Assembly: GCA_963781585.1 (NCBI GenBank)
Contig: CAWAGQ010000013.1
Coordinates: forward strand, 96,001-160,000
DNA from: an uncultured Gemmatimonadaceae bacterium
Lineage (GTDB): Bacteria > Gemmatimonadota > Gemmatimonadetes > Gemmatimonadales > Gemmatimonadaceae
Direction of reading: 5' to 3'
DNA: 64,000 nt
A model generated the notes under the pieces. The model did no database searches and was not told the origin of the DNA. It was given only the letters and a program-made list of their open reading frames with translations. The translations under genes were made by a program, and so were the position numbers. This document shows positions 19,528 to 35,680 of the stretch, piece by piece (positions within the stretch are counted from its first letter, which is position 1; each line of letters begins with the position of its first letter).

Positions 19528-19529
19528 GA

Positions 19530-19577
19530 TGCGGAAGGGGGGACTCGAACCCCCACGGTTGTCCCACGGGATCCTAA
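19530..19577 (-). pseudogene. 3' half of the split host tRNA-Leu(TAG); left attachment junction
   Basis: Minus strand TTAGGATCCCGTGGGACAACCGTGGGGGTTCGAGTCCCCCCTTCCGCA contains the anticodon 3' strand, variable arm, T-arm and acceptor strand CTTCCGC. The acceptor strand pairs with GCGGAAG at 35629-35623. Confidence 0.93.
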
Positions 19578-19596
19578 AAATTATTTCCCCTTCTAG

Positions 19597-19681
19597 TGCG
19601 GGCGGAGGGATTTGAACCCACAAGTCCTTTTGGGACAACGGCTCCTAAGGCCGTCGCGTATGCCAGTTCCGCCACGCCCGC
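19597..19681 (-). tRNA. tRNA-Leu(TAG), element-encoded, 85 nt
   Basis: GCGGGCGTGGCGGAACTGGCATACGCGACGGCCTTAGGAGCCGTTGTCCCAAAAGGACTTGTGGGTTCAAATCCCTCCGCCCGCA: 7-bp acceptor stem, ACGGC/GCCGT anticodon stem, long variable arm, T-stem with one U-U mismatch, no encoded CCA. Confidence 0.93.
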
Positions 19682-19740
19682 GCTTCGATTTTTCGCCTAG
19701 TGTCCCTCTTGGTGTCCCTCTCGTCTAGTGGCACCCTGGA

Positions 19741-19749
19741 ATTCTAACA
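19741..19749 (-). promoter_or_regulatory. putative extended -10 promoter for the element tRNA
   Basis: Minus strand TGTTAGAAT (TGn-TAGAAT) about 60 bp upstream of the tRNA. Confidence 0.45.
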
Positions 19750-19992
19750 GGGCGGCGAAGAACAAGGCGACACCTGGGTCTGACACAGCCCCGTGTTTTA
19801 CCCCCATGCGATTTTACCCGAACTTCCGCGAACAACCTTCACGGGAGTTGTTGTGATGGCCAAAAGAGATAAAGAGAAGACTGGGGATTGCGCCGGAGAA
19901 CGGACTACTAAGGGTCACGTCATGTACGGCGTCGGCAAGTCAACGACGAGACATACGTCATCACGCGCCTGACGCCTCGGTACGCCCAGTAC

Positions 19993-20226
19993 ATGCTCGC
20001 GCTCACGCTTGATCGTGGCGATGCCATTGTGCTATCGGCAGACAATGAGGGGAACCTGCTACTGAGGGCGGCTTCGACCAGTGGGCGTTCGACTCGTTTC
20101 AGGATGCCTATCTCTGTGCGCGGGACCTCCTCGGCGTCGGTAATCCGGGGTTTGCGGCAACGTCGTGGTCGAGGACTGGAAATCGGAAGGCGAAAACGAA
20201 CGCCGAACCGGCATGGCGGACCTTGA
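19993..20226 (+). CDS. small hypothetical protein
   Basis: 77-aa ORF between the tRNA and the integrase; start uncertain. Confidence 0.3.
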   Translation: MLALTLDRGDAIVLSADNEGNLLLRAASTSGRSTRFRMPISVRGTSSASVIRGLRQRRGRGLEIGRRKRTPNRHGGP

Positions 20227-20414
20227 TCGTTCGCAAGCTCGAAGCGTTGATCGCCGACACGGAACGGAAGATGAAGGAAGAACAGGCAGCACAAAGCAAT
20301 ATCGCCTAACGTCATACGTCTGCGTGGCTTTGGTGTCCCATTGGGGTAAGATTTGACTATCAGCTCGTTAGGCGCTCGACCCTCAGTCGGACACCAATCA
20401 GCCACGGAGGTCAG

Positions 20415-21860
20415 ATGATCAAGAAACTCTCACCACCACCCACGGAATCGCCGCTCGGTCGTCGAGAGCGCGGGCACGGAAAACTCGTGTGCTGGCCGTA
20501 CCGCACGCCGGCTGACCGTCTCGCGGGCGTCGCCGTTCCATATGGATACGACGCGCGAGGCCGGGCGCTGTGGAAGTTCGTCCTCCGGCTCGACGGTAAG
20601 GCGGTCGTGATCCCAGCCCGTGACTGGCCGCACGCCAACAACGAGTCGCTGAAACGCCTCGGCAAGTGGGATGAGATCGTTGCCGCGAAGGCGGCGAGGA
20701 AAGAAGCGCGCAAGGCTCGGATCACCGGCATAGCCGCCAGTGAGGGATGGAGGTACGCCGACCTGACGCGCGAATGGCTAGCCCACAAGCATCAGCAGGG
20801 CAGGGCACGGCCCTCGACGCTCGCGGGGTACGCGGACGACCTCAAGCGTCACTTCGACCCGTTCTTCAACGTGAAGCTCGACAACCCGGCGCTCGCCGAA
20901 ATCACGCCGGTTGCCATTTCGGCTTTTCGTGCCGCAGTCACGGGGGCAAAGGGTGACCGGCGTCGCGAGAAATGGAACAAGCTGTTTTCACGAGGTTGGG
21001 AGATCTTTGAGTTCGCCCGCGCTCTCGGGAAGATCGACCGCAACCCGTGGATCGCGCCCGTTCATCGCTATCCCGAGCGAACCCGCGACGCGGAGCAGCA
21101 GACCACTGTAATTCCGGCGACGCAGTTGGATCTGATCCTCGACGAGGCCGAGAAGCTCGATGACCCTCGCGTTTCCGTCGCGGTGCTACTCGCTGGGTAC
21201 GGCGGCCTTCGGCTCGACGAGATGACGCACGTTCGCGTCGGCGACCTCACCGTCACCGACACGCTGGTGGATCTGAAGGTAACCAGTGGCTTTCCCTGCT
21301 CGTGCTCATCGTGCGCGAAGGACGGCAACAAGCACCTGACGAAAAATGGGACGACGCGCTACGTGCCGTTCTTGCCTGAGCACGGACAACGGTTCGCTGC
21401 ACATGTCGAACGGCTTCGCACCGCCGGCGTGAGCGGTCCCGAGACGTGGCTGCTCGCCTGCCTCGAACGGCAGCGTCGGTCGAAAGCGAAGCCGGGCAAC
21501 ATGGTCAGGCGCGATACCATCGCGGGAGCGGTCGAGGGACTCGTCGCACGGACGCTCGGTCTCGCGCCGGTCGTCTCGAAAAAGAAGGCCAAAAACAAGT
21601 CCGGACAGATCCGCGATGTGACGCGGACGCGCTACAAGCTGCCGAAGGGAGAGCGCATCCACGTACTACGCCACGCGGCGCGGACTCGGCTCTCGCATCT
21701 CGGCCTGCCGAGCGAGACCATAGACCTCATCATGGGTCACCGGCTCACGGGGATGCGCGGCACGTACACGCATCAGGACCGCGCTGCCGCGTATCGGCTC
21801 CTCTGCGAGAAAGCAGGCAGGAATCTTCCGAGCCCGGTGCAACTCGTCCGGAGCGCCTAA
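20415..21860 (+). CDS. int: tyrosine recombinase/integrase
   Basis: GGAGG RBS. Catalytic motifs GLRLDE (R), HVLRH (HxxR), IMGH and TY, plus a SAM-like RPSTLAGY...L..I region. Confidence 0.93.
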   Translation: MIKKLSPPPTESPLGRRERGHGKLVCWPYRTPADRLAGVAVPYGYDARGRALWKFVLRLDGKAVVIPARDWPHANNESLKRLGKWDEIVAAKAARKEARKARITGIAASEGWRYADLTREWLAHKHQQGRARPSTLAGYADDLKRHFDPFFNVKLDNPALAEITPVAISAFRAAVTGAKGDRRREKWNKLFSRGWEIFEFARALGKIDRNPWIAPVHRYPERTRDAEQQTTVIPATQLDLILDEAEKLDDPRVSVAVLLAGYGGLRLDEMTHVRVGDLTVTDTLVDLKVTSGFPCSCSSCAKDGNKHLTKNGTTRYVPFLPEHGQRFAAHVERLRTAGVSGPETWLLACLERQRRSKAKPGNMVRRDTIAGAVEGLVARTLGLAPVVSKKKAKNKSGQIRDVTRTRYKLPKGERIHVLRHAARTRLSHLGLPSETIDLIMGHRLTGMRGTYTHQDRAAAYRLLCEKAGRNLPSPVQLVRSA

Positions 21861-21941
21861 CGCCGACTCACCATCAGGTGAATACAAGGGCGTATATTTG
21901 ACTACATCGTAAATGGCTGGGCGCATCGCCAGCCCACCACG

Positions 21942-21982
21942 GAGCCGGGTGACGGGGGAGCCCTCGTTCCCCGGCTCTCTTT
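21942..21982 (+). terminator. GC-rich hairpin followed by TCTTT
   Basis: GAGCCGGG (21942-49) pairs with CCCGGCTC (21970-77), with inner pairing; lies downstream of int. Confidence 0.55.
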
Positions 21983-21998
21983 ATCACCGGAGTAATGC

Positions 21999-22175
21999 AT
22001 GAAAGCCAAGCGAAGGAAGACCCGCCCGTCAGCCACCCGCGCCGAAAGCATCCGGCGATCCTGGCAAGTTCAGTCGATTCGCCAGCGTCGGTCTGAGGGC
22101 GTACGGCGGTACCACGAGCGCGCCCGCGCCGCCCTCGAAGCGCAGGAACGCGAAGGTGGCATGGCCACGACGTGA
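21999..22175 (+). CDS. 58-aa arginine-rich protein
   Basis: Below the ORF-track cutoff; GGAG upstream. Sequence MKAKRRKTRPSATRAESIRRSWQVQSIRQRRSEGVRRYHERARAALEAQEREGGMATT. Confidence 0.45.
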   Translation: MKAKRRKTRPSATRAESIRRSWQVQSIRQRRSEGVRRYHERARAALEAQEREGGMATT

Positions 22176-22284
22176 GAGGTTGCTACCGCGCACCACGGTA
22201 GTCTGGTTGGGCACGACGAAAGAGAAGCGCGCCTCGGAGCCGAATCCGAAGGCGCGCACCTGAACCCGACAACTCAAATCAACA

Positions 22285-24183
22285 ATGGAATCGCAGGATA
22301 ATATCTCATCGCCGCTCGTCCAGCGGTTTTGCGACCTGTTTCAAGCTGCGGCGGTATCCGCGACCGCGACCGCTGCCTTCGCTCTCGTCGCGCACGCGGC
22401 GACACCCGTGGAAGCGGCGCACGCATATGCGTCCGCCGGGTTTCCCGTCATCGCGTGGCGAGCTGGCGCGGACGGTGCAAAGGTGCCGCTCATCGACGCG
22501 TGGCCGAGTGCTGCGACGAACGATCCCGGCGCGGCGGTGCGCTGGTGGGACCGCTGGCCCGACGCGGGCGTGGGGGTGGTCCTCGACGCCGGCTGGTGCG
22601 TCGTTGACATCGACGGCGACGATGGCCTACGGACGCTCGTCGAACGCGTTCAGCTTGGCGGACTGCCACTCGGCCCTCGCGTTAAGACTGGACGCGGGTA
22701 CCATCTATGGTATCGCGTTCCGCCCGCGCTCCAGTCAGGGCTTCGGAACGCGGCGAATGGCAAGGTTGAGTTCTACGTCGAGGCCCGCAAGCGATTCTTC
22801 GCCGCGCCGCCGTCGATACACCCGACCGGCGTCGCATACGCGTGGGAACACGCCGAGCTGCCGGTACCTGATCTTCCCGCCGACGCGTTCCGGTGGCTCA
22901 TCGACGTTGACGGCGACCACAGCGCGTCCAAGCCGAACGTGGCCGCGCCGCTTGTCGGTCGCCACGACGACCTATTTCGGGCGCTGTGCTCCATGCGGGC
23001 GCGCGGGTTCGACGAGGACGCAATCGAAGCCGCAGCCCAAAAGCAAAACGAAGCGTTCGCGGATGGTCCGCTCCCGGCCACGGAACTCGCGCGCATCGTG
23101 ACGATGGTCAACCGTTATCCGCTCGGGACGGCGCTGCCGAATCGTCCGACGACGCACGGCCTCACGCTCCGCCGCTACGACGAGATCGAGGAACGCCCGC
23201 TGTCGTGGGGGTGGCGCGGCGTGCTGCCGCGTCGGACGCTCTCGACCGTCGTGGGGGAACCCGGTCTCGGCAAGAGCCTCGTGACTTGCGACCTCGCGGC
23301 GCGATTTACGCGGGGCGAGGCGATGCCGGGCGGGAGCGCGAACGGGTTCGGCAGGCCGGTCAACGTCCTTATGATCGCCATCGAGGACGACCCCGAGGAC
23401 ACGATCAAGCCCCGGCTCGACGCTGCGGGCGCGGACATGATGCGCGTCTTCGACGTTCGCATGAAGGTCGAGACGAGCGACGACATCGGCGCGCTGCCGA
23501 CGTTCCCGGACGACGTGCCGCGCCTGTTCGAGCTAGTCCGTGAGCACGACATCAAGGTCATCATCGTCGACCCGATCACCGCCTGTCTCTCCGACAAGGT
23601 GAACGCCTGGAAGGACGCGGACGTAAGGCGGGCGCTCGCGCCGTTGATCACGCTGGCCCGCGAAGTGGATGCGGTGGCCCTCGGCGTTATGCACGTGAAC
23701 AAGAACGAGACGCAAAGCGCGATCAACCGTGTCGCCAACTCGAAGGCCTTTACGGCAGTCCCGCGCGCCGTGTGGTGGCTCGGCCGCGACCCCGAAGACG
23801 AGGCACATCAAGTGCTTGTTTCGGTCAAGTTCAATGTCGGGCCGAAAGATAAGAGCTACGGCTTCTGCATCACGGGCTTTGACGACAAGGCCCCGCGGGT
23901 GGCGTGGGACGCCGCGCCGGGAACCTTCACGGCGAAGGACCTCCAGCGGCCCCCGCTCGACGAACGGCGAGACGGGAGGTACGAGGCCGCCCTGCTCCTC
24001 TTGCAGCACCTCGGCACGGGGCTCGTCGTCGAAAGCCGCGAGATCAAGGAAGCGGCGAAGGGCAGAGGAGTCGGTGAGAAAACGCTCGAACGGGTCGCGA
24101 AGGAGTTTGGGGTCGTGATCACGCGGACCTCGGAAGTGCCGTCGCGCACCACGTGGCGGTGGCCGTCGCGACTGACCTACTAG
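22285..24183 (+). CDS. bifunctional primase-polymerase with PriCT-like and AAA (RepA/RecA-like) helicase domains
   Basis: PrimPol motifs WWDRWPDA, VVDID, TGRGYHLWY, APPSIHPTG..Y.W; Walker A GEPGLGKS; IIVDPI; VMHVNK. Confidence 0.9.
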   Translation: MESQDNISSPLVQRFCDLFQAAAVSATATAAFALVAHAATPVEAAHAYASAGFPVIAWRAGADGAKVPLIDAWPSAATNDPGAAVRWWDRWPDAGVGVVLDAGWCVVDIDGDDGLRTLVERVQLGGLPLGPRVKTGRGYHLWYRVPPALQSGLRNAANGKVEFYVEARKRFFAAPPSIHPTGVAYAWEHAELPVPDLPADAFRWLIDVDGDHSASKPNVAAPLVGRHDDLFRALCSMRARGFDEDAIEAAAQKQNEAFADGPLPATELARIVTMVNRYPLGTALPNRPTTHGLTLRRYDEIEERPLSWGWRGVLPRRTLSTVVGEPGLGKSLVTCDLAARFTRGEAMPGGSANGFGRPVNVLMIAIEDDPEDTIKPRLDAAGADMMRVFDVRMKVETSDDIGALPTFPDDVPRLFELVREHDIKVIIVDPITACLSDKVNAWKDADVRRALAPLITLAREVDAVALGVMHVNKNETQSAINRVANSKAFTAVPRAVWWLGRDPEDEAHQVLVSVKFNVGPKDKSYGFCITGFDDKAPRVAWDAAPGTFTAKDLQRPPLDERRDGRYEAALLLLQHLGTGLVVESREIKEAAKGRGVGEKTLERVAKEFGVVITRTSEVPSRTTWRWPSRLTY

Positions 24184-24189
24184 CACGCG

Positions 24190-24560
24190 GTGTCGCGTGT
24201 AACCAATGATACAAATCCACGGACCGAAGGTTATAAAAAGTAGGAGTGTCTCAACCAGGAGGAAGAATCGCGTAACTCGTTGGCACCTAACGCCGCTTCC
24301 AGTCGCGACACTTCGCGTGAAAAGGGCAGTCGCGACACGCGTCATTCACGGTGGGGCGGAGCCTCCGCTTCCAGTCGCGACACGGCGGGTCGAATACAGG
24401 GAGGCCTGGCCTACAGCCTCGCTGAATGCCCCGGAAAATGCCTGCCGCGACCACGGCGGGACACCAGCGCGGGACACCACCGCCCGGCCGATTGTAACAA
24501 GCTCACATAAGTGCTGTCGTGGCAAAGCTTTATGCACAAAGACTATCATATCAGGTACGC
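24190..24560. repeat. iteron-like repeats with AT-rich flanks; candidate replication origin
   Basis: CAGTCGCGACAC at 24300, 24327 and 24372 (19-bp identity between copies 1 and 3); GCGGGACACCA at 24456 and 24469; AT-rich tracts near 24200-24245 and 24490-24560. Confidence 0.7.
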
Positions 24561-24709
24561 TAGTTCGTCTTCGCGACAAGCCCCTAGAACACGCTCAGAC
24601 CGCCTCGCGTGCCGCCGACCTATTTCTCCCTGTCCTCACGCACGGATTGCCCTTACCGTGGCATCTGGTGCCACCACCAACCGGTTCGCTGGACCTAACG
24701 AGTTCCTCA

Positions 24710-25312
24710 ATGAAGAACCCAAAGGAAGTGAAAGCGCCGCCCTTCCCAGACCTGCTCGCTGCGCTCGACCAGTACGATCCGCGGCTATCTGCGGAGGTGC
24801 GCGCCCTCCTCGCAGAGCTAAGAAGGGTCATCGCGGAGACCGGAGCGGCAACGGGAGGAGAAGGGCTGTCCGAAACCGCAGTCACAACGATCAAAGACAT
24901 CGCGACCGCCCACGTCGGCTCCGCGATGTACAACCAGCTCTCGTTGCAGTACTCGGCGGGTCTCCCGCTGAATAAGGGCGGCGAGAAGCGGGGCGTGATT
25001 CTGAGAGCGATGGAGAAGGCAAACCCTTGGTTCAGCGCGGCACGGTTCAAGGGGATGGATGGTCGCTTGCTTAAGAAGCCAAGCGGTCAGGCTAATCTGC
25101 GGGCGCGCGGCCGTGCGGCAGCCAAGGCGCGCGAGCTTCCGCGCGTGGACATTGACGAGCTGACTGAGCGTGAGGGCGACGCCATTTACGCGGAACTAAA
25201 GGCGGAGGACCAAGCGCGGCTCGCCGCCGGGAAGCGACCGCGGAAGTCCGTCGAAATCCAAAGGCAAGCGGAGGTGCGCGCCGCCCGTCGCCTAAAGGAG
25301 CGCGGCCAGTGA
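24710..25312 (+). CDS. hypothetical protein
   Basis: 200 aa from ATG 24710, helical and basic. The upstream ORF extension runs through the repeats and is probably non-coding. Confidence 0.6.
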   Translation: MKNPKEVKAPPFPDLLAALDQYDPRLSAEVRALLAELRRVIAETGAATGGEGLSETAVTTIKDIATAHVGSAMYNQLSLQYSAGLPLNKGGEKRGVILRAMEKANPWFSAARFKGMDGRLLKKPSGQANLRARGRAAAKARELPRVDIDELTEREGDAIYAELKAEDQARLAAGKRPRKSVEIQRQAEVRAARRLKERGQ

Positions 25313-25465
25313 CAGCGCTGTATCGGACTCGTTAGGGCCATCACGGTACCTTGAAAAACGTATCGAGGCCTCACGCCTCGACGCGCTACGGACGACGGTC
25401 GGCCAGCGGAACTGAAAATCTCCGCCGCTGGTCGGCCGAAGCCCCGGACCTCAAGGAATACCAAG

Positions 25466-26068
25466 ATGGCAACAACCACCAAGCCAGAAACGCTCGACCA
25501 GAGGCGCGCTCGCCTACAGGGCGAGTGCAATCACCTCACGTGTGACGCGCGGGATGCGCTCGAGGAGAAGCTGATTGCGGCAGATACAGCGGAGAAGGCG
25601 GCCGCTACGGCCGACGACGGACCCGCATGGCAAGCCGCTCGACGAGCCAAGGCCGACCTGATTCAGGAGCGTGAGGAACTCGTCGCGAGCATCGAGGCGA
25701 AGCAGCTCGCGCTCAAAGAGTGTGAGTGGCAGATCGCCAAGCGAGACCGGGACGCCGGAATCCGCGAGGTGCAGGCGCACGCCAAGACTGCGGCCGACGT
25801 CGCGCCGGAGATCGTCGAAGCTGTCGAGACCCTCGCCGACGCCCTGCAGCGCTTCGCAGGCCAGTGCGCCGGGGTCTATCGCGCTGGCGCGGCGGTGGAC
25901 CACGACAACGAGCGCGGCCTTCGCGAGCTGACGTCGAAGGAACGCGTGTGGCGCGACGTGGAATATCACCTGCGCGCGGCGCTCGGACTTTCCACCGGCG
26001 CGTTCATTCACGGCACGGCGCTCGATCAGGCAAGCGAGCTAACAACGTACGCCGAGACGCTCCGATGA
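25466..26068 (+). CDS. coiled-coil hypothetical protein
   Basis: AAGGA RBS; Ala/Glu-rich helical sequence; first gene of a translationally coupled run. Confidence 0.75.
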   Translation: MATTTKPETLDQRRARLQGECNHLTCDARDALEEKLIAADTAEKAAATADDGPAWQAARRAKADLIQEREELVASIEAKQLALKECEWQIAKRDRDAGIREVQAHAKTAADVAPEIVEAVETLADALQRFAGQCAGVYRAGAAVDHDNERGLRELTSKERVWRDVEYHLRAALGLSTGAFIHGTALDQASELTTYAETLR

Positions 26069-26301
26069 CGCCCGACCGCCGGGCGGAGCTTCGCACCGTC
26101 GCGCGTGCCTATGCCTTCGACGTCGCCTTCGGTGGCGCGCCGCTCGTCGGGGCGATGGCGCGCACCTGGGGCCACGCCGAATCACGCGAGGAATCCCGTC
26201 GCGTCCTCGCCGACTTCAATACTGCCTTCCGCCACTTCGCCCGTCGCGCCGGTCGCGCGGCGATCCGCTCCACACTTCGTGAGGTCCGCCGTGAGCGATA
26301 A
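26065..26301 (+). CDS. hypothetical protein
   Basis: ATGA overlap with the upstream stop; begins MTPDRRAELR. Confidence 0.6.
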   Translation: MTPDRRAELRTVARAYAFDVAFGGAPLVGAMARTWGHAESREESRRVLADFNTAFRHFARRAGRAAIRSTLREVRRER

Positions 26302-26647
26302 CACGTTCGTTCTACCGGCGAAAGCCGCACATGCGTTCCGACCGGGCGAGATGATTCCGGAGGACGGCTTCACCCGCTTCGTGCCCTACTTCCCTCGTCT
26401 GACCGGCGAGTCCGACGCCGCCTACGCGGCTCGGCTAGAAGCTGTCGGGTTAGCCGTAGTCATTACCTCCGAGGATGCCCGCGACATCGCTACGTACCGA
26501 GGACTCGTAACCGAGGCCGTAACGCGGAAGCTGCCTATCGCGATGCTGACCTCTCCGATTTCCGACGACCCGGGCGACGTGGACCTCGCGACTAGAGAAG
26601 CGGCGAAGGCGGCCGCCCTCGAAGCTGCGCACAGAGCCAAACCCTGA
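26291..26647 (+). CDS. hypothetical protein
   Basis: GAGG then GTG 26291, overlapping the previous gene. Confidence 0.6.
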   Translation: MSDNTFVLPAKAAHAFRPGEMIPEDGFTRFVPYFPRLTGESDAAYAARLEAVGLAVVITSEDARDIATYRGLVTEAVTRKLPIAMLTSPISDDPGDVDLATREAAKAAALEAAHRAKP

Positions 26648-26661
26648 ACCGATACACTCCC

Positions 26662-26841
26662 ATGGCAAACAATTCGAAGCTTGACCCGTCCCCCACCTAT
26701 AGCCCGTCGCATCACGACATCGATGAGTGGCACCGCGCTCGTCAGGCTCCCGGCAACGCGCCCGCGAACTCGCCCGCCGCGCCGGGAAACGCGCCGCGTG
26801 AGAACGTCGAACGTCCCGAGAAGTCGAAGGACGGCCGATGA
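26662..26841 (+). CDS. 59-aa Pro/Asn-rich hypothetical protein
   Basis: MANNSKLDPSPTY...; its stop overlaps the next ATG (ATGA). Confidence 0.45.
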   Translation: MANNSKLDPSPTYSPSHHDIDEWHRARQAPGNAPANSPAAPGNAPRENVERPEKSKDGR

Positions 26842-27206
26842 CCGCGACGGTCGGGCTGACGGTCGGCCTTACCGACGAAGACGAGCGCCTGATCGAGCGG
26901 CTGATCGACGCCGCGCTCGTCAGGCGCTTCGGATCGAGTAACGGCGCTCCCTCCGAGTCTGACCGGCTCGCTTCGTGGCGCGAGCGGCTTTGGACGTGCG
27001 CGCCGGATACGCGCCTGTTTGCCGACGAAGTCGCGGCGGCTCTCGGCGTGTCGAAGCGGACCGTCTACCGCTGGGTAGACGTGAAGCACCTTCCCTGCCG
27101 ACGCCGCGACGACGGGCTCGTGTTCCTCGCGGGTGACGTCCGAAGGTGGGCCGACGAACAGGAAACGGTGGTCAACTCGGCCGCGCGGCTTCGGAAGGTC
27201 GGGTGA
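26838..27206 (+). CDS. excisionase-like helix-turn-helix protein
   Basis: DEVAAALGVSKRTVYRWV...LPC...F...DVRRW matches the Xis/HTH_17 pattern. Confidence 0.8.
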   Translation: MTATVGLTVGLTDEDERLIERLIDAALVRRFGSSNGAPSESDRLASWRERLWTCAPDTRLFADEVAAALGVSKRTVYRWVDVKHLPCRRRDDGLVFLAGDVRRWADEQETVVNSAARLRKVG

Positions 27207-27210
27207 CGCC

Positions 27211-27474: not shown

Positions 27475-28993
27475 GCGAGAGCTAGAGCGACTTCGCCGCG
27501 AACTCGGCGAGCTGGAAGAGCGGCTCTACGGCACCGCGCCGTGGCCCGACCTCTCCCGGTACGCCGGGCGCGCCCGCGCCTTCGCGGAAGACGTTTGCCA
27601 CGCGGTGCTGCTCTCCTGGCAGGGCGAGGCGTTTGACGCGCTCGACGCGAACCGGCTCCTTGCCGTCGCGTCGTGCAACGGCGCGGGCAAGACCGCGTGG
27701 GCGCCGCTCGCGCTCCTGTACGTGGCGGCGGTGCTCGGTGCGAAGGCCGTCTATCTGACCGCCAACGAGCGGACGGCGCGCACGACGATGGTGCGCGAGC
27801 TAAAGCGGTGGGTCCGCGCCGCGAAGCTGCCGTGCTCGGTCTACAACCACGGCGTCGAAACGCCTAACGGCGGCGTGATCCTCGTCCTGTCGCCCGCCGA
27901 GATGGAAGCGGCCGCGGGCCAGCACGACCCCGAGATGGTGGTGATCGTGGACGAGGCCTCGGCGCTCGAAGACGACATCTTCGAGGCGCTGATGGGCAAC
28001 GCCGTGTCGGAGCGCAACCGGCTGGTTCTGCTAGGCAACCCGCTCCGCGCCTCCGGACCGTTCGCGACTGCGCTCCGCGCCGCACAGGGCTGGTGGAAGC
28101 GCTTCGTGACCGCCGCCGAGGTGATGGCCGACGCGAACTATGCGAACATCGCGGGCCTCATCAGCAAGCCGGGCGTGGACGCGCTCCGTCAAACGTTCGG
28201 TGAGGAGTCGATGGCGTTCGCGAGCCGCGTATACGCGCGGCTTCCGGTCGCCGACGCGGACGCGCTCTATCCGGAGGCGCTGTTAGAAGCGGCCGTCGAG
28301 CGCTGGCGAGCCGGCACGCTTCGGAGGAAGCACGCGAACGCGCGTCTCAAGGCGGGGCTCGACCTGGCCGCGTCCGAGGACGGCGACGCGTCGGCGCTGG
28401 CGGTGGCCTTCGGCGGCGCGCACGTCGAGGCCATCCACACCATGCGGAGCCGCGACACGATGAAGGTCGCGGGCTGGGCGGTCGCCACACTCGGCGCGTA
28501 CAACGCGCGGCGTCGCCCTAGCTTCGCGATGGCCGAAGCCGTCCGGGACCTCGGCCTAACGAGCCCCGGCGATCCCCTCATCCAGCTTCGCGACGTGAGC
28601 ATCTATGGCGACGAGATCGCGTGGGGAAAGGGCTGCATCGACCGGCTCAAGGAGGCGGGCTTTGCGGCTTACGGCATCAATGTTTCACGACGACCGGCCG
28701 AGGCCGACAAGGCGGCGATCTACGCGAACGAGCGGGCGCGCATCGCCTACGCGTTCCGCGAAAGGCTGGTGCAGGGGACCGTGGCGATCCCACCAGACGA
28801 CGAGCTGCTGGAAGAACTACGCGCCTATAAGGCCTTCGCGAACAGCGCCGGGAAGCAGCAGTGCGTCAGCAAGGGCGAGCTTCGGCAGGTGCTCGGCCGA
28901 AGCCCCGACAAGATGGACGCGGTGCTGCTGGCGACGTGCGCGGACGCGTCGCCGACGTTCGACGCCGACGAGAGTGGCTTGATCGCGTTCTAG
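27467..28993 (+). CDS. terL: terminase large subunit
   Basis: Walker A ASCNGAGKT, Walker B VVIVDEAS, LLGNP coupling motif, nuclease motifs GLDLA...GDAS and RSPDKMDA. Confidence 0.88.
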   Translation: MNRRELERLRRELGELEERLYGTAPWPDLSRYAGRARAFAEDVCHAVLLSWQGEAFDALDANRLLAVASCNGAGKTAWAPLALLYVAAVLGAKAVYLTANERTARTTMVRELKRWVRAAKLPCSVYNHGVETPNGGVILVLSPAEMEAAAGQHDPEMVVIVDEASALEDDIFEALMGNAVSERNRLVLLGNPLRASGPFATALRAAQGWWKRFVTAAEVMADANYANIAGLISKPGVDALRQTFGEESMAFASRVYARLPVADADALYPEALLEAAVERWRAGTLRRKHANARLKAGLDLAASEDGDASALAVAFGGAHVEAIHTMRSRDTMKVAGWAVATLGAYNARRRPSFAMAEAVRDLGLTSPGDPLIQLRDVSIYGDEIAWGKGCIDRLKEAGFAAYGINVSRRPAEADKAAIYANERARIAYAFRERLVQGTVAIPPDDELLEELRAYKAFANSAGKQQCVSKGELRQVLGRSPDKMDAVLLATCADASPTFDADESGLIAF

Positions 28994-29514
28994 GTTGCGT
29001 CCAGCAACGCGTCGATGATGGTCATGCTCTCGCTGAGAGAATCGTAGCTCGGCCGATCAACCCAACCGAACCTCTCCTCGCCGGAGACAAACGCGGCACC
29101 GAGGAGGCTGCTAACCGGTATGACGCCAGGATAGCAGACCTCCACTGGTACGATCATTGGGAGGTGCTGGCCACAGCGCCGAGTTGCCTCGCGCGACGAC
29201 ACCGGAGCAGTCGGAAGCAAACCGCGATCAACGCAAAGTAGAACGGTCAACCTGTGGAGGAACACAAACCGCTCCCACTGACGATGCGTGTCGGGGTGGA
29301 ATACCTCTTCGGGTCGTGCTGCGGCGAAGTCAAAGAGCGAGATAGCGCCCAACTGCCGACAGCAGGAGTCGCGCGACTGCGGAAAGGTGTCCCGCATCGA
29401 CCCGTCCCAAGGTCTAATCTCGCCGCACTTTACGATCTCTGCGAAGTGACGAACGCTCGTCGCGTGTATAGGTCCCTTCAGAAGAATTCGATACAGCGGG
29501 TGTTCTTTCTCCAC
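28990..29514 (-). CDS. hypothetical protein with ADP-ribosyltransferase-like motif order
   Basis: IHATS...IVKCGEIRP, then ISLFD, then PVEVCYPGVIP; start GTG 29514 assumed. Confidence 0.5.
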   Translation of the reverse strand: MEKEHPLYRILLKGPIHATSVRHFAEIVKCGEIRPWDGSMRDTFPQSRDSCCRQLGAISLFDFAAARPEEVFHPDTHRQWERFVFLHRLTVLLCVDRGLLPTAPVSSREATRRCGQHLPMIVPVEVCYPGVIPVSSLLGAAFVSGEERFGWVDRPSYDSLSESMTIIDALLDAT

Positions 29515-29524
29515 GGCGATGCCA

Positions 29525-30472
29525 TCAACAGTCGCGTTCCGCGTTTGGTGTCTGCGCGTCGGAGTCGGGCGCGCGGATGGGCTCGGGCTCGAACCACGCC
29601 GCCCTCGTTTCATTCTGGCAGACCACTATCTCGTCGTCGGCGTGGACGAGCGTGCGTTGATTGAGGATGTCGACAACCATTGGCGTCGTCTTCTGAAAGC
29701 CGCTAAGACCGGCGCGGTTGTAGACGAGGGTCTGACGCGGAGAGATTGGAAGCGTGACCTCCACGGTCGGATACATCAGACCTGGCGCCCGATGCAGGAA
29801 TGGACGCTTGTACGCCTCGGGGTCGAACACGACGCAGGGCGCGTCCGATGCGATGAATCCAAGGCGATCATCCGTGGAGAGAATCGCGAGATCCATTCCC
29901 ACGAGTAGCGACGCCATTGTCTCGATCGCCACAGCCATGCTGTTTTGAAGCGGCTCGCTCGCAAGTCGTCGTACGTCCGCATGACTCATGGTCTTAGCGC
30001 GATCCGATGGCGGCATCATCAGGCGAGCTATCTGCTCGCGCTCCTCGGGCGATCGCCTCATCATGTCGTCGTGAACTCGATCCAACGTTTCGAGAAGGCG
30101 TCCCCACTCCTTCCTCTGATGGTCGCGCTGTCGACGCGACCGCGAGTGCATCGCCGCAACGAAGACCGCCAGCATGAACTGGTCGAGCGGCTCAAGCTCG
30201 ACGCGCGCCTCAAACTTCTCGCGTCGCAGCGTCGAGAAGCGATCCTCCAATTCGCTGAGCCCACGTTCAAGCCGCAGGTCCCGAGCGCCTGACCGGCCGT
30301 GAATCGTGTACATGTCGGTCTCCGCGAAGATATTGTGCGGCGCCTTCCGACGGCCGGCACCGCCATTCCACGGGAACACCCACACGTACGGCTCCTGGCC
30401 TTCGGGCGTCGTGGGGTCGCACCATGCCGAGAGGTACGAACGGGGGACCCAGTGTTGTTTCTTGTGCTTCAT
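29525..30472 (-). CDS. DUF4238 family protein
   Basis: QHWVPRSYLSAW N-terminal signature, LERGLSELE, FIASDAP, LPISPRQ. Confidence 0.85.
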   Translation of the reverse strand: MKHKKQHWVPRSYLSAWCDPTTPEGQEPYVWVFPWNGGAGRRKAPHNIFAETDMYTIHGRSGARDLRLERGLSELEDRFSTLRREKFEARVELEPLDQFMLAVFVAAMHSRSRRQRDHQRKEWGRLLETLDRVHDDMMRRSPEEREQIARLMMPPSDRAKTMSHADVRRLASEPLQNSMAVAIETMASLLVGMDLAILSTDDRLGFIASDAPCVVFDPEAYKRPFLHRAPGLMYPTVEVTLPISPRQTLVYNRAGLSGFQKTTPMVVDILNQRTLVHADDEIVVCQNETRAAWFEPEPIRAPDSDAQTPNAERDC

Positions 30473-30734
30473 GGAGCGAACCGAAATGGCCACTCGCGAC
30501 GTGCGACCGACGCGTCGCCTACCGTCGACTGATCGAGCGGCCGATAAGCCTTCTGACTGGCCCGATAAGCTACGGGACTAACCTGCCAGAGAACGCGGCG
30601 CTGATTACCTGTGAGATTGCGGCGTTCACCGCCTCGCGAGTTCCGCTCTTGAGTGCGGCACGTATGCGCTGTCCAAGCGGAGTCTGATCCTTCAGCGCAT
30701 CCGGCACGGAATTGAGAACGGTTAACCCCTTTAG

Positions 30735-32084
30735 CAGGGTGCTGAAAAAGGGTGGAAAACTTGCTGTTGCAGAACGGGAGAGCGATGCCTAACGTGGCGC
30801 GACCCCAATGGAGAGTCCCCGGTATGCGCGGCGAGAGCCCCCAGCAGACGATTCTGTTCAGCTATCGCTCGGTCGAGGACCGGATCCCGGTCGACCACCC
30901 CTTGCGCGTGATCCGCCAGCTCGTGGAACCCGTGCTGCGCGAGCTGTCCCCCCAATTTGACGTGCTGTACGCCAAGATCGGGCGGCCGTCGATTCCGCCG
31001 GAGCACTTGCTGCGGGCGCTCCTCCTCCAGGTGCTGTACACGCTCCGGAGCGAACGGCGCCTCATGGAGGAACTCGACTACAATCTCCTCTATCGCTGGT
31101 TCGTGGGACTGAATCCCGACGAGCCCGTGTGGGTGCCGACCGTGTTCACGAAGAACCGGGAGCGGCTCCTGGAGGGGGACATCGCGCACGCGTTCTTCGC
31201 GGCGGTCCAGCGGCAGGCCGAGGTGCGGCAGTTGCTCTCGCACGAGCACTTCACGGTGGATGGCACGCTCCTCGAAGCTTGGGCGAGCCAGAAGAGCTTT
31301 CGCCCGATCACCGAGGGGGGCGACGGACCCCAGGGGCCCACCCCACCGGCGGAGGCGGATGCCGCGAGTCGGCCGAAGAATCCGACGGTGAATTTCCGGG
31401 GGGAGAAGCGGTCGAATGCGACGCATCGGTCGAGGACGGATCCCGACGCGCGGCTGGCCCGGAAGAGCCGAAACACCGCCGCGATTCTCGGCTACCTGGC
31501 GAGTGTGATCATCGATAATCGCCACGGCTTGGTGGTGGCGACCGATGTGCGCGCGCCGGGCGGGCATGCGGAGGAGGAGGCCGGGCTCGAGATGCTGACC
31601 ACGCTGGAAAGCCACCGGCCGCACCGGACCCTCGGGGCCGACAAGGGCTACGATACCGAATCGTTCGTCACCGGGGCGCGGGACGCGGGGGTGACGCCCC
31701 ATGTCAGTCAGAACATTCACCCCCGCCGGCTTCGCAGCGCCATTGACGCGCGGACGACCCGCCACTCGGGCTACGAGATCAGTCAGCGCAAACGGAAACT
31801 GGTGGAGCAAGGCTTTGGCTGGGACAAAACCGTGGGCTTGCTGCGCAAACTCCGGCATCGCGGTCGCGAGAAGGTCGGCTGGATCTTCACGTTCACCAAT
31901 GCCACCTACAATCTGGTGCGGATCCGCACCCTGATCCGGGCCGGCGTATGCCCCTAACGTCGACCAGCGCGCGGAATCGCCGCCGCGATCGCGCAAAGGG
32001 ACGCTCCCTGGAACTGCCGACGGCCGCATCGCACGCGCAGCCACAACAGAAATCGTCACTTCCCTGCCGTTTTTCATCATCCTG
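30735..32084 (+). mobile_element. IS5-family insertion sequence, 1350 bp
   Basis: Terminal inverted repeats CAGGGTGCTGAAAAA and CAGGATGATGAAAAA; TTAG target duplication at 30731-34 and 32085-88. Confidence 0.93.
30824..31957 (+). CDS. IS5-family DDE transposase
   Basis: DHPLR, GRPSIPPE, VDGTL, LGADKGYD, RKLVEQGFGW. Confidence 0.93.
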   Translation: MRGESPQQTILFSYRSVEDRIPVDHPLRVIRQLVEPVLRELSPQFDVLYAKIGRPSIPPEHLLRALLLQVLYTLRSERRLMEELDYNLLYRWFVGLNPDEPVWVPTVFTKNRERLLEGDIAHAFFAAVQRQAEVRQLLSHEHFTVDGTLLEAWASQKSFRPITEGGDGPQGPTPPAEADAASRPKNPTVNFRGEKRSNATHRSRTDPDARLARKSRNTAAILGYLASVIIDNRHGLVVATDVRAPGGHAEEEAGLEMLTTLESHRPHRTLGADKGYDTESFVTGARDAGVTPHVSQNIHPRRLRSAIDARTTRHSGYEISQRKRKLVEQGFGWDKTVGLLRKLRHRGREKVGWIFTFTNATYNLVRIRTLIRAGVCP

Positions 32085-32355
32085 TTAGGCTGAGCGTAAC
32101 GCGGTACATGAGGTGGCCGTCATCGACCACATGCCCTCGAATGATTCCCTCTGCAAGAAGGAAATCCAGCGTCGAAGAAACCAACTCTGGCGTCAAGTCT
32201 GTCGTATCGTGGGCGAGCGCGGTTACATCGAGAAACATTTCGCGTGGAGCTTGCTCATAAAGCGTCGCGAGGACCAACGCGACAGCGTGGTTAAACGGGT
32301 CAGAGTATGTCATGGACTCGTCAGGCAAATTTGGTCGTCGGAGGTGCAGTTCCAC

Positions 32356-32565
32356 TCACAGCCTGGGAGACGCACCGTAAATCGTAAGAATCTTGATCGT
32401 CTGGTTCTGAAGCGGCTTCTCGCGGCGCCTAACCCTCGGTTGAGAAAGGAAATGACGAACCGACAAGAGGACCTCTTCGCGGCTCAGCGTTCGATATGCC
32501 ATTACCTGATACGTCATATTATTCGCGTCGTCGCGCAGGGTGTTGCAAATGTTAGGCATTTCCAC
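32356..32565 (-). CDS. small hypothetical protein
   Basis: 69 aa, co-oriented with its neighbours. Confidence 0.6.
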   Translation of the reverse strand: MEMPNICNTLRDDANNMTYQVMAYRTLSREEVLLSVRHFLSQPRVRRREKPLQNQTIKILTIYGASPRL

Positions 32566-32583
32566 TTTTGGCTCCCGGCGAGC

Positions 32584-32790
32584 CTATTTCTTCCGGTTGT
32601 ACGGCTTTTGATTCGTCGGGCTGAGGGAGATGTCCTCCGCGCTGGCTCGCGTATACACCGCGGCCGCCGTACGACCGAGCTTCAACGCGATCACTCGGGT
32701 CGGCGTGTTGCCGCCGGCCAGCTCACGCAGCTGCTGATCGTCGCGGGCCGTCCAATCCTTGCCGGTGTTCCTGATGTATTTCGGCGTCAT
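32584..32790 (-). CDS. small Myb/homeodomain-like HTH protein
   Basis: GKDWT..DD..LREL...IALKLGRT..AV; GGAG RBS. Confidence 0.7.
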   Translation of the reverse strand: MTPKYIRNTGKDWTARDDQQLRELAGGNTPTRVIALKLGRTAAAVYTRASAEDISLSPTNQKPYNRKK

Positions 32791-32886
32791 CTTCGGGTCT
32801 CCTGCGGTATTGAACCAGAAATCGTACGAATAGCCGGGTCCGGCACAACCACGGATCGCACATTGCTCATGAACATCATCATCTTG

Positions 32887-32915
32887 ACATTAATGAGGAA
32901 TATGGTCTTTATCAA
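32887..32915 (-). promoter_or_regulatory. putative sigma70 promoter for the leftward cargo genes
   Basis: Minus strand TTGATA-N17-TAATGT in an AT-rich tract about 100 bp upstream of 32790. Confidence 0.4.
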
Positions 32916-33165
32916 TGCATGATCGACTGCGGAGCCTTGGGTACGACGCAGCCGAATCATAGGGACTCCCAACTCGCATACCCAATCAACGGAGGAACCA
33001 CCCATGACTCGCAATCCACTTCAATCACGCCGAAGGAACACGCGGTGACCTTGCAGAAAGGTCCACAGTAAAATGGCTCCTTACGCAAGTGCGGGGAGCA
33101 ACTGGGGCATTTCACTGAGCGGGCGACCTGCAAAAAACCCAGCAAGGTCTGGGGGAGGGATTGTA

Positions 33166-33402
33166 ATGGCGAAGCTGAACGAACTGAGTGTGTCCGATCT
33201 CCGCAGCCAGCTTCCGAGTGTTCTGCACCGAGCGCTCGCGTTCGGTGAGTCGTTTCTGATTCTGAAACATGGTCAACCTTTTGCCGTTCTTTCACCACTG
33301 ACTGACAAGGAGGAGATCGAGCGCGTCCGAGCGAAGCTCAGCAGTGAGGGTGCCGACCGCGAACCGGTAGATGACGTGCTGGACGCGGAGTCGATCACGT
33401 GA
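33166..33402 (+). CDS. Phd/YefM-family antitoxin
   Basis: LSVSDLRSQLPSVL...GESFLILKHGQPFAVLSP pattern, acidic tail, GGAGG RBS. Confidence 0.8.
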   Translation: MAKLNELSVSDLRSQLPSVLHRALAFGESFLILKHGQPFAVLSPLTDKEEIERVRAKLSSEGADREPVDDVLDAESIT

Positions 33403-33446
33403 TTTCACGCCGGCGACGAGTGGTTCGCCGGAGGGGGTAAGCAGGA

Positions 33447-33689
33447 ATGGCAGTCGCGTTCTATTTCTTACCTTCGGCTGCGGAGCGGATGATGCGGTTG
33501 CCGCCCGACCTCTTGGTTCAAGCGGAGCAGATGCTCCAGGAGATCCAAGGACATGTCGGGGGTCACATCGGCGTCGAAGGCATGGTCGCGTACCGTCGAC
33601 CGACGCCACACGGCCAGATCCGAATCGTCCTCGCAGTCGTCCGGAACGAGATCATTGTCGCCGACGTAAACGTGGAGGTGTCGGGCTGA
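33447..33689 (+). CDS. divergent RelE/ParE-like protein
   Basis: 80 aa after the antitoxin; F.PSA..M..LP...YR...G..RIV...IIV layout. Confidence 0.5.
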   Translation: MAVAFYFLPSAAERMMRLPPDLLVQAEQMLQEIQGHVGGHIGVEGMVAYRRPTPHGQIRIVLAVVRNEIIVADVNVEVSG

Positions 33690-34019
33690 AGCGTTTTTCG
33701 AAACGCAACGGCGTGCAGTCCGGAATCGTTGAAAGCCAACTGATGCGAAAAAACATGACAAAGAGGGGTCAGCCAGCGTTTCGCGGGCCGACCCCTCGTT
33801 TTTCTAACCTCAGGCCGCCGACTTCTTGCCCGAGCTTTACACGGCTGCGGGCAACGCCCGTGGCAGGTCCAGCGAGCATCGTGAGATTGCGCGGTCGCCA
33901 CCATGCAAGCGGCTGGCCCCACGCCCACCGGGTTATCGCGCCGTGCTCGAAAACGGCGCACAAAGCCCGCCGTCACTCTTAAATGCTTTGGTTACGCAGA
34001 CAGCGCCGGCACGAGACTC

Positions 34020-34484
34020 CTACGTGAGGGCGCGCGGCTCGCCGCTGTTGCCCTTGAGCTCAGCGTTGCGCATCTGGTAGCAGAGAATAATCGTGGCGGC
34101 GATGCCAAGAGCGCACGCGCCGACGAGGACCCATGCTGGGTCGCTGTGGCGGCCGGAAATCAGAACTGCGGTGACTAGGACGGCATTTACAATCGCATGT
34201 GCAACTGTAAGAACGAGCGCAACTGCGAAGTGCTGTCTTGGCGCGACCGTCGCGCCAACGTATACGAATGCCAGAGGCCCGACGATGCTGTTGATGAGCT
34301 GAGAATATGCCTTTTCAAAGAATTCAGGCAAACCGGTAAGCGAGTTACCAATGGCGACGAGAATCTGAATAGCTATGTATGCGGCCGCCGCAGCGGGGAG
34401 CACGAGGGCCCAGCGTGCCCAAGCGGGGATGGAGGAGAGGGTCACGTCTCGAGTTCTTCTTACCCTGATGGCAGCGTCACGCAT
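34020..34484 (-). CDS. hypothetical membrane protein (about 4 TM)
   Basis: Four hydrophobic segments. Confidence 0.65.
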   Translation of the reverse strand: MRDAAIRVRRTRDVTLSSIPAWARWALVLPAAAAAYIAIQILVAIGNSLTGLPEFFEKAYSQLINSIVGPLAFVYVGATVAPRQHFAVALVLTVAHAIVNAVLVTAVLISGRHSDPAWVLVGACALGIAATIILCYQMRNAELKGNSGEPRALT

Positions 34485-34485
34485 G

Positions 34486-34953
34486 CTAGACGCTTCCCAC
34501 GGTTGGAACGGCGAACCTTCCGTGAAGCTTGAACGTTGCTTCGACCGCGCGAGCTGCCACAACGAGCACCGCGATGGCCAGACCAACGTTAGTCCCAGGC
34601 GCCGACGTGATACCGACGTTGTTGAGAAGAGTAACCGCGCCGCTGCCAATGGCGGCCAACAGGAGGATCACGGCGGCGATCCGCGAATGCCACTTGCGGA
34701 GGATCGCACCCAGAACGAGGTACGCGAGAGCATCAAGTAACAAGTCGGTTGACGTCGCCCGCGGAATGAAGAGCCCTAACGCTGCTTCGATTGCTGCAAG
34801 GAAGAAGAATGCCGAAGACGAGTCTTTGACCACTTTGAGCGCGTCGTCCCTGTTCGCAATCGCTGAGAACAAGCCGTTTCTCTTCGGTGCAACCGCCATA
34901 GGCAAGCTCCGGAAGGCGTTTAGCTGCCTAACTGGGTTTGGAACCCTTTCCAT
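34486..34953 (-). CDS. hypothetical membrane protein (about 4 TM)
   Basis: GAGGA RBS; four hydrophobic segments. Confidence 0.7.
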   Translation of the reverse strand: MERVPNPVRQLNAFRSLPMAVAPKRNGLFSAIANRDDALKVVKDSSSAFFFLAAIEAALGLFIPRATSTDLLLDALAYLVLGAILRKWHSRIAAVILLLAAIGSGAVTLLNNVGITSAPGTNVGLAIAVLVVAARAVEATFKLHGRFAVPTVGSV

Positions 34954-34980
34954 GTGTCCGTCCTCGCCTCGTTGACGACG

Positions 34981-35421
34981 TCATGTCGGGGGGAGGAAGA
35001 CGAAGAGCAAGACGGCGCAGATCGGCAGCACGAAGAAACCAACCCTCCCCATGATGTCGAACACACCCGTGTTATCGAGGCCTCCGAACCGAACAAGAGG
35101 GACCAAGACAGCCCACTGCATTGCCAACGACAGCGGGAATGCTATGGCCAGCAGTTTGACGGCTTCCAGCCATCCATTTCGATAGGCGAAATAGAGAAGG
35201 AAAGCCCAGCCAAAGACTCGCGCGATGAGAAGGACCGACCCAAACACCAGCTGCGGGCGGGTCGACGCGGGACCGCCACTCATGTACCCCTGGTGGAGCT
35301 TCAACATGTAGTACTCGTTCATGCGGAAGAGCGCATAGACGAGAATGAGTGAAACTGGCACGCCGAGGACCATGGCCGTGCGAATGTGCCGACTTTGTCC
35401 GATGCCGGTAAGGGACGACAA
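34981..35421 (-). CDS. hypothetical membrane protein (about 4 TM)
   Basis: Hydrophobic segments; GAGG upstream of a TTG start. Confidence 0.6.
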   Translation of the reverse strand: MSSLTGIGQSRHIRTAMVLGVPVSLILVYALFRMNEYYMLKLHQGYMSGGPASTRPQLVFGSVLLIARVFGWAFLLYFAYRNGWLEAVKLLAIAFPLSLAMQWAVLVPLVRFGGLDNTGVFDIMGRVGFFVLPICAVLLFVFLPPT

Positions 35422-35590
35422 GCCTCTTACTCCGGACCTTCACGGTAGAAATCCCAAAGGGGCACCCATTCGGCCGGTGTCCCGAGGATGTCCTAATCGG
35501 TCACCGACGGGGCCCTCCACGACTCAACCGCCAGTCGCTAAGTCCTTCTCTGCCAACGCCTGTCACTGGGTGGCACGCCTAACGTCACGC

Positions 35591-35629
35591 TCCTAAGTCC
35601 CGCGCGTCTACCAGTTCCGCCACTTCCGC
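35591..35629 (-). pseudogene. 5' half of the split host tRNA-Leu(TAG); right attachment junction
   Basis: Minus strand GCGGAAGTGGCGGAACTGGTAGACGCGCGGGACTTAGGA followed by non-tRNA sequence. CGGGA pairs with TCCCG of the fragment at 19530-77. Confidence 0.93.
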
Positions 35630-35680
35630 GTCCTGGAGAAGAAGGCACAGCGTTGACCAAGGTGTGCTCACCGCCCCTGG

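Follow-up and report, generated by a model that had tools for sequence, protein, structure and literature searches.

How does a bacterium go on reading the leucine codon CUA when the gene for the tRNA that decodes it has been cut in two? The question is raised by a 64,000-nucleotide (nt) stretch of contig CAWAGQ010000013.1 from an uncultured Gemmatimonadaceae soil bacterium (the window, whose positions are used throughout unless another contig or locus is named), in which the two halves of a host tRNA-Leu(TAG) gene stand at the ends of an inserted 16-kb island that carries a complete tRNA-Leu(TAG) of its own. We consider it probable that a phage-derived island integrated into the single tRNA-Leu(UAG) gene of the cell, left that gene broken, and replaced it with the island tRNA. 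This reading is carried by the insertion itself, an empty site in a congener, the lack of a rebuilt tRNA at the junctions, the sole copy in the assembly, and the use of CUA by the host. It involves the following features:

19530-19577, minus strand: displaced 3' half of the host tRNA-Leu(TAG), from the anticodon loop to the discriminator, identical to the intact gene of the same-genus genome G001 (locus L002) over its nt 34-81; core TTAGGA at 19572-19577.
35591-35629, minus strand: 5' half of the host tRNA-Leu(TAG), displaced together with the region upstream of it; core TTAGGA at 35591-35596.
19578-35590, unstranded: the complete island as integrated, 16,013 bp, present once in the genome except for an insertion sequence (IS).
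19596-19681, minus strand: complete island tRNA-Leu(TAG), 85-86 nt (ARAGORN; Rfam tRNA model, 54.1 bits against a gathering score of 29).
19578-19595, minus strand: AT-rich spacer of 18 nt between the island tRNA and the crossover core, forming the left end of the island.

The first 39 nt of a tRNA-Leu, closing with CTTAGGA, can be read from 35629 to 35591 on the minus strand; 19577-19530, on that strand too, opens with TTAGGA and goes on into the anticodon stem, the variable arm, the T arm, and the acceptor strand. The two halves overlap by exactly 6 nt (TTAGGA), with mismatches flanking this core on both sides. The core occupies tRNA positions 33-38, that is, U33, the anticodon, G37, and A38. 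When the halves were joined by script, ARAGORN recognized an 81-nt tRNA-Leu(tag) with 7 of 7 acceptor pairs and 5 of 5 anticodon-stem pairs, and this rejoined gene is identical at 81 of 81 positions to the intact tRNA of G001 (L002 2577-2657). The flanks are collinear as well, with L002 1-2615 corresponding to window 38198-35591 and L002 2610-4115 to window 19577-18068. With both flanks collinear and the gene intact, G001 represents the empty attachment site, and 19578-35590 is therefore the insertion. Relative to G001 it measures 16,013 bp, with a 6-bp overlap at its ends and no base missing or extra. The host tRNA-Leu(TAG) is cut in its anticodon loop by the inserted island, well beyond what chance would produce. 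In two further genomes (G015 and G016) the tRNA also adjoins the same class-III aminotransferase gene; scanning six loci for the tRNA found it in three, the other three being without it.

No rebuilt tRNA was found at the junctions in an Rfam scan of 19000-36200 (E ≤ 1), where the sole match was the island tRNA, and ARAGORN called only one tRNA over the 64-kb window, the tRNA-Leu(tag) at 19596-19681 (minus strand). The sequence that follows the host 5' half and the sequence that precedes the host 3' half are both unlike tRNA. Contigs of four sequencing runs were considered as evidence for an empty site or a circular form and were set aside: they cover only the tRNA-like and IS-like stretches, and their apparent 16-kb skips have sides shorter than 30 nt with other letters between, marking them as tRNA-Leu genes of other organisms.

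The island tRNA has an A73 discriminator and a long variable arm, and its acceptor stem (7 of 7) and anticodon stem (5 of 5) are fully paired. Its Rfam score of 54.1 bits compares with 57.8-59.8 bits in host-type genes (L002, L015, L018). The length of the spacer that separates it from the core depends on which tRNA end is called, being 18 nt with ARAGORN and 19 nt with Rfam. A duplication of the host gene was ruled out as its origin, as the acceptor, anticodon, and variable stems all differ from those of the host copy and each pairs within itself. These results agree with the original prediction, made from the letters of the window alone, which had placed the split in the anticodon loop with TTAGGA as the core, had claimed that neither junction restores the gene, and had described the complete tRNA, placed 19 bp inside the left end, as distinct from the host copy. 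It had also looked to an alignment with an element-free relative, and the congener G001 indeed has the host-type tRNA at this locus, not the tRNA at 19597-19681.

With the host gene in pieces, decoding of CUA depends on what other tRNAs the cell has. ARAGORN called 63 tRNAs in the 17 contigs of this genome, among them five tRNA-Leu with the anticodons caa, taa, cag, gag, and tag, and the sole tRNA-Leu(tag) in the assembly is the island copy. Under the wobble rules, tRNA-Leu with the anticodons caa, taa, cag, and gag cannot read CUA. The codon is rare, at 0.67 per 1000 codons, and is nonetheless in use, with 745 CTA codons spread over 571 of the 2313 long open reading frames (ORFs) with high GC at third codon positions.

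The island also encodes the enzyme that could have placed it here:

20415-21860, plus strand: tyrosine integrase, 481 amino acids (aa), full length (PF00589, 37 bits; phrog_1, 3e-25), with GLRLDE, HVLRHAAR, IMGH, and GTYTH present.

We take these four motifs to be the catalytic ones. In the mechanism we propose, the integrase would have recombined the island into the anticodon loop through the 6-bp core TTAGGA. With no matching tRNA half in the attachment site of the island, the host gene would stay as two dead pieces 16 kb apart, and the island tRNA-Leu(UAG), under island-borne upstream DNA, would now read CUA for the cell. We infer that the cell transcribes and charges the island tRNA and needs it, that an integration event lacking it would kill the cell or cost it dearly, and that the host gene would be restored by precise excision.

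Several observations weigh against this account. The T stem of the island tRNA contains one mismatch, U50-U64. A search of 19450-20450 for sigma-70-like promoters found 0, with 0.4 expected, although promoters in this phylum may not fit the consensus, and in the sequencing-run search no public RNA run contained the region. In the search for reads across the junctions, no public DNA run matched more than 0.17 of the sampled words. In addition, the genome is 93.5% complete with 7.2% contamination, and a second tRNA-Leu(UAG) could be unassembled.

These points lend themselves to three other explanations. The island tRNA might be redundant cargo on which the cell does not depend, because another tRNA-Leu(UAG) lies in the unassembled part of the genome. 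The assembly, in 17 contigs and 93.5% complete, leaves room for such a gene, and tRNA genes often go unassembled. We nevertheless find this improbable, since ARAGORN detects one such gene here, the gene stands beside the aminotransferase in G015 and G016 too, and the only strong match in G001 to a query made of the 5' half and its flank is the syntenic site, the other match being a 28-nt stretch. Among the 401 phylum genomes searched, moreover, 135 match the island-tRNA query, 7 of these with two matches and the others with one. We think it very improbable that the island tRNA is non-functional, with the loss of CUA decoding tolerated or a recent dead-end event caught in the metagenome. Such an explanation would make sense of the U50-U64 mismatch, the promoter search, and the rarity of CUA, yet it sits poorly with a codon used in 571 of 2313 long ORFs and with a tRNA that scores 54.1 bits and has complete acceptor and anticodon stems. 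An identical tRNA in contigs of three other metagenome runs suggests a maintained gene, and the island is old enough to have received an IS whose chromosomal copy is 99.5% identical. In G171, a relative described below, island-borne upstream DNA must drive the rebuilt gene.

We give least credence to an assembly artefact or a minority variant, in which most cells would keep an intact gene and the contig would join an episomal or differently placed element. The halves abut the insert exactly, with a 6-bp duplication, which is the signature of site-specific integration and not of a chimeric join, and the same cut point occurs independently in the metagenome contig L016 and in G171; these observations stand against the metagenome-like character of the genome, its 7.2% contamination, and the public runs that gave no matching reads. 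We retain the reading in which the island broke the host gene and supplies its replacement.

On this reading, how firmly would the host be bound to the island? The original prediction had made dependency conditional on the number of tRNA-Leu(TAG) genes, and the single copy among 63 tRNAs, in an assembly 93.5% complete, agrees with it that far. The addiction it went on to propose holds in part. Loss of the island tRNA without excision would be penalized, but the hold is weak: with both halves and the core intact, the integrase would restore the host gene by precise excision, so that curing in this way should be harmless. We prefer the term entrenchment to addiction, in the sense that decay of the integrase would fix the foreign tRNA as the CUA decoder of the host.

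The integrase is rare. Only 6 matching proteins, the query included, were found in a set of 5.8 billion proteins, and it is present at E ≤ 1e-20 in 2 of 401 genomes of the class, this one included. An alignment search returned one locus in genome contigs, three in metagenome contigs, and none in viral contigs, and a single-protein query returned none in genome contigs. One of these relatives, L016, has an integrase 47% identical to that of the window. At its end lie nt 1-39 of a host tRNA-Leu, a 5' half that was cut at the same TTAGGA as here, and the sequence next after this half has blocks in common with the right end of the window island, forming a homologous right arm. Another, L015, has a full tRNA beside an integrase region 95% identical to that of L016, and its contig stops 26 nt past the tRNA, which may have been rebuilt or captured. 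At 342-427 (plus strand) of L015, in the interval from the tRNA to the integrase, Rfam reports a c-di-GMP-I riboswitch (36.4 bits, gathering score 35), a family for which the Rfam scan of 19000-36200 gave no match in the window island.

The two metagenome loci also help to interpret the DNA upstream of the island tRNA, which contains a repeat:

19700-19721, unstranded: tandem direct repeat of GTGTCCCTCT, two copies, upstream of the island tRNA.

A motif related to GTGTCCCTCT recurs as an inverted pair at 20330-20346 and 20381-20397, and the direct and inverted copies are candidate arm-type integrase sites. In L015 and L016 a homologous pair of repeats precedes the tRNA at the corresponding position, and together with a TTAG-containing block it makes up the upstream DNA common to the three loci, a homology at the level of motifs. 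Given this common upstream DNA, the 5' half of the island tRNA occupies the position that a 5' half takes in the family.

The most informative relative is found in G171, a genome flagged as unpublished, on which all statements about this relative rest. Its integrase is 37-38% identical to that of the window, and 6 of the 21 island ORFs are matched, in the same order. Read in the sense of the tRNA, the locus begins with host-type upstream DNA and a 5' half, followed by a 2.7-kb remnant; it continues with island-type upstream DNA and a second 5' half, followed by a 15-kb island with the integrase; and it closes, next to the integrase, with island-type upstream DNA and a full tRNA. Over 40 nt (tRNA nt 1-40) the three 5' portions agree at every position (100% identity), and a search of the G171 genome at E ≤ 10 found no spare tRNA 3' half. 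The uninterrupted site is seen in the genome G593, with the upstream flank of G171, an intact tRNA, and the first ~48 nt of the downstream flank. Layout and empty site together indicate that in G171 the gene is rebuilt from a 5' half and upstream DNA that the island brings. New in this analysis are this element, which by its layout uses the same position in the loop and restores the gene by means of a 5' half of its own, and the metagenome relative L016, which is cut at that position too.

The same loop position is used in the classical, 3'-half orientation in G039, where a 5.8-kb remnant (L065, G039:C46 12580-18524) with a 40% identical terminase-large-subunit (TerL)-like gene is bounded by a full tRNA-Leu(tag) on one side and, on the other, by tRNA nt 33-71 as a displaced 3' fragment. 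No relative of the window integrase was found at this locus. Paired matches to the 5' portion of tRNA-Leu(TAG), 2-6 kb apart, were also seen at G585:C127 33226-36005, G602:C18 20508-22557, and G557:C1 420795-426842, a pattern that suggests that small inserts displacing a 5' half may be common at tRNA-Leu(TAG) in Gemmatimonadota. In a further genome, G510, the 3' end of tRNA-Leu(tag) is repeated over 19 nt at a distance of 36 nt downstream from the gene (L027 1620-1638), and the repeat looks like a small classical att scar.

If a relative can rebuild the gene with a 5' half, why would the window island carry a whole tRNA? A hybrid of the island 5' half and the 3' half of this host pairs at only 6 of 7 positions in the acceptor stem and 2 of 5 in the anticodon stem. 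Such a hybrid would mispair in this host, and a complete tRNA therefore removes the limit set by stem matching. With a whole tRNA, the sole identity still needed is that of the six loop bases TTAGGA.

As to its origin, we infer, short of proof, that the island tRNA was captured from a former host. The island is laid out as upstream DNA, whole tRNA, 18 nt, TTAGGA, and family right arm, which is the order expected if, in a former host, the island had excised at a secondary TTAGGA a short way past the gene it had rebuilt. Whether the family ancestrally rebuilt the gene with a 5' half only, and the window island gained the whole tRNA and the 18 nt through such an excision, seems to us about evenly balanced. 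The wider proposal is more tentative, and we hold it somewhat doubtful: that the integrase family preserves the step from rebuilding to replacing. On this proposal at least one relative (G171), bringing as it does a 5' half alone with a promoter region of its own, would depend on matching the stems of its host, and the window island, through capture of the whole tRNA, would need nothing but the six loop bases common to all tRNA-Leu(UAG), widening its host range to any bacterium with that tRNA.

Capture has to contend with several findings. The island tRNA is absent from the 401 phylum genomes, where the best identity is 80%, and in the same genomes the 18-nt spacer lies next to no tRNA-Leu(TAG). 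Likewise, no match to the island-tRNA query in these genomes extends past position 130 of 161, and an exact 30-mer search for a tRNA donor found none in viral contigs. The left side of the attP core is unlike the tRNA sequence that flanks attB. The island tRNA does occur in contigs of three soil or sediment runs (X2, X3, and X4), with 0 differences over 88-89 nt in two of them and, in X4, 2 differences over 122 nt that include 37 nt upstream (window 19597-19718). All three contigs diverge at the 3' end of the tRNA and are without the spacer, which also counts against capture; the exact tRNA in three runs shows that it exists in other contexts, those being contexts without the spacer.

The remaining annotated features of the island are the following:

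22285-24183, plus strand: fusion of a primase-polymerase and an AAA_25 helicase, the replication module (Prim-Pol, 3.6e-28; AAA_25, 8.9e-31; PriCT_1; PHROG DNA polymerase/primase, 3.9e-39).
26838-27206, plus strand: HTH_17/excisionase-like DNA-binding protein (HTH_17, 3.7e-9; phrog_66 excisionase, 5.8e-8; TIGR01764, 26.4 bits, below the cut-off of 28.8).
27467-28993, plus strand: terminase-large-subunit-like ATPase, 508 aa (phrog_2, 5e-17; nearest Atlas clusters 0.99, mostly viral, named terminase/Terminase_6N).
29525-30493, minus strand: DUF4238 protein, cargo (Pfam, 1.6e-31).
30732-32088, plus strand: IS5-family IS, 1357 bp, with its transposase at 30752-31957 (NCBIfam transpos_IS5_4, 252 bits).
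35470-35590, minus strand: right end of the island (P' arm), with the blocks AGTGACAGGCGTTGGCAG and AAGGAC-TAGCG common with L016 and CGTTAGGCG 7 bp from the core.

GC content ranges over 0.56-0.71 in the island and 0.66-0.69 in the flanks. The HTH_17 protein is a candidate recombination directionality factor or regulator. The TerL-like protein had no match among PDB sequences or in viral contigs, and it is the only packaging-category protein among the 21 island ORFs, in which a comparison with PHROGs detected no capsid, portal, tail, or lysis families. Several further ORFs are without matches. We claim no defence system, PADLOC on 11 island ORFs having given one weak match (E = 6e-4). The IS5 element entered after the island had formed; its second copy, 99.5% identical, is at 231040-232391 of contig C11. 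The left 7.4 kb of the island have no match in G001, a genome that is 64% complete. Five of the seven exact copies of CGTTAGGCG in the window lie inside the island. With one mismatch allowed there are 29 matches against 19.2 expected, a count reached by 3 of 100 shuffles, and this is a weak lead only.

The host flanks carry carotenoid genes on the left and the aminotransferase gene on the right. Among the best 120 homologues of the aminotransferase, all those with an organism name belong to Gemmatimonadaceae or Gemmatimonadales. Its ORF (35712-37271, 519 aa, GTG start) exceeds these homologues by about 75 aa (~443 aa, 84-86% query coverage); translation probably begins further downstream, and the intergenic gap beside the host tRNA 5' half would then be longer. 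Outside the window, ARAGORN made three unusual tRNA calls in this genome:

C14 156433-156507, minus strand: 'tRNA-Stop(tta)'.
C7 24027-24121, plus strand: tRNA with the four-base anticodon (gcca).
C4 507125-507221, plus strand: tRNA-SeC.

The principle of replacing a broken tRNA gene is published and has been predicted to be widespread, and the value added here is modest: a relative that rebuilds the gene from its 5' half, and the argument from stem incompatibility. With this locus, tRNA-dependent integration reaches beyond actinobacterial phages to an island of phage origin in Gemmatimonadota. Foreign replacement copies of this kind can disturb tRNA gene trees, and once the integrase decays a host lineage may keep an imported codon decoder permanently. 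The rebuilding relative and the replacing island form a concrete pair for asking how replacement arises, and the same pair lets the relation between carriage of a whole tRNA and host range be tested. If capture is true, the host tRNA would be swapped for a foreign one wherever the island lands.

In relation to known systems, the island resembles the classical tRNA islands mapped by the Islander algorithm (PMC4383910), as described in the portions of that work used here, in bearing an integrase, in targeting a tRNA gene, in having displaced fragments at its ends, and in an anticodon-loop crossover. It differs in that a regenerated gene lies at neither end, both ends being fragments, whereas G171 has a regenerated gene. 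The classical rule is followed by G171, with its 5' fragment upstream, and by G039, with its 3' fragment downstream. Islander, in the same portions, allows the mirror arrangement of a 5' fragment upstream of an intact gene, so the arrangement of G171 is not new in itself. As both ends of the window island are fragments, a search of the Islander type, as designed, would not map it, and island finders that seek an intact tRNA with one displaced fragment will miss such elements.

The island further holds the features expected of phage-inducible chromosomal islands (PICIs) and PICI-like elements, namely an integrase, a regulator or excisionase, a replication module, and no virion genes within ~10-20 kb. 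In scans of the 21 island ORFs against PHROGs, no small terminase and no capsid-remodelling or capsid-size family was detected. A large-terminase-like gene is present, which to our knowledge is not typical of PICIs, and no helper was identified. Transfer by a helper phage is possible. Tycheposons, in the parts of their description consulted (bioRxiv 10.1101/2020.12.28.424599), share with it a size of ~16 kb, a tRNA target, the series integrase-excisionase-primase/helicase, and the lack of virion genes; they leave partial tRNAs beside a full-length host gene, which this island does not. Replacement outside Actinobacteria has precedents. In Sinorhizobium meliloti, host tRNA genes are replaced by phage-related sequences, according to the sections of PMC11476347 and PMC12429752 drawn on here. 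These cases and the Lactobacillus johnsonii prophage Lj965 are like the present one in that a tRNA of a non-actinobacterial host is inactivated and the element brings the same anticodon; they differ in that their hosts are Alphaproteobacteria and Firmicutes and the elements are prophages or phage-related sequences.

The closest counterpart is tRNA-dependent lysogeny, as set out in the passages of Guerrero-Bustamante and Hatfull (mBio 2024; PMC10865867) on which we rely. There, a tyrosine integrase uses an attB in an essential single-copy tRNA gene, the core is ~10 bp (8-17 bp, their Table 2), the gene is not rebuilt, and a cognate phage tRNA is required for survival of the lysogen. The phages include Fionnbharth (K4), LeBron (L), Cain (K6), Gaia (X), and Gordonia phages of clusters CQ2 and DL, and rebuilding and replacing relatives occur within one integrase family (Ximenita and Cain, Omega and Gaia). 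In these passages the authors expect the strategy outside Actinobacteria and cite Lj965, without documenting it there. The original prediction had seen the same strategy in a different lineage, and at the level of sequence the likeness is borne out: the island has a tyrosine integrase of predicted catalytic activity, an attB in a host tRNA gene that is single-copy in the assembly, a core whose length does not suffice to rebuild the gene, a tRNA of matching anticodon, and a rebuilding relative, G171, in the same integrase family. It would thus act like a system of tRNA-dependent lysogeny; as no virion genes were found, we do not class it as a phage. It differs from the phages in its Gemmatimonadales-like host and in being a 16-kb island, known from its sequence, with a primase-helicase and a TerL-like gene and no virion or lysis genes detected. 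The core is 6 bp as opposed to 8-17 bp, and, unlike in the phages, the attachment region itself contains the tRNA, at 18 nt from the crossover. The rebuilding relatives differ as well: those of the phages supply the 3' half of the gene, whereas G171 supplies the 5' half together with its upstream DNA.

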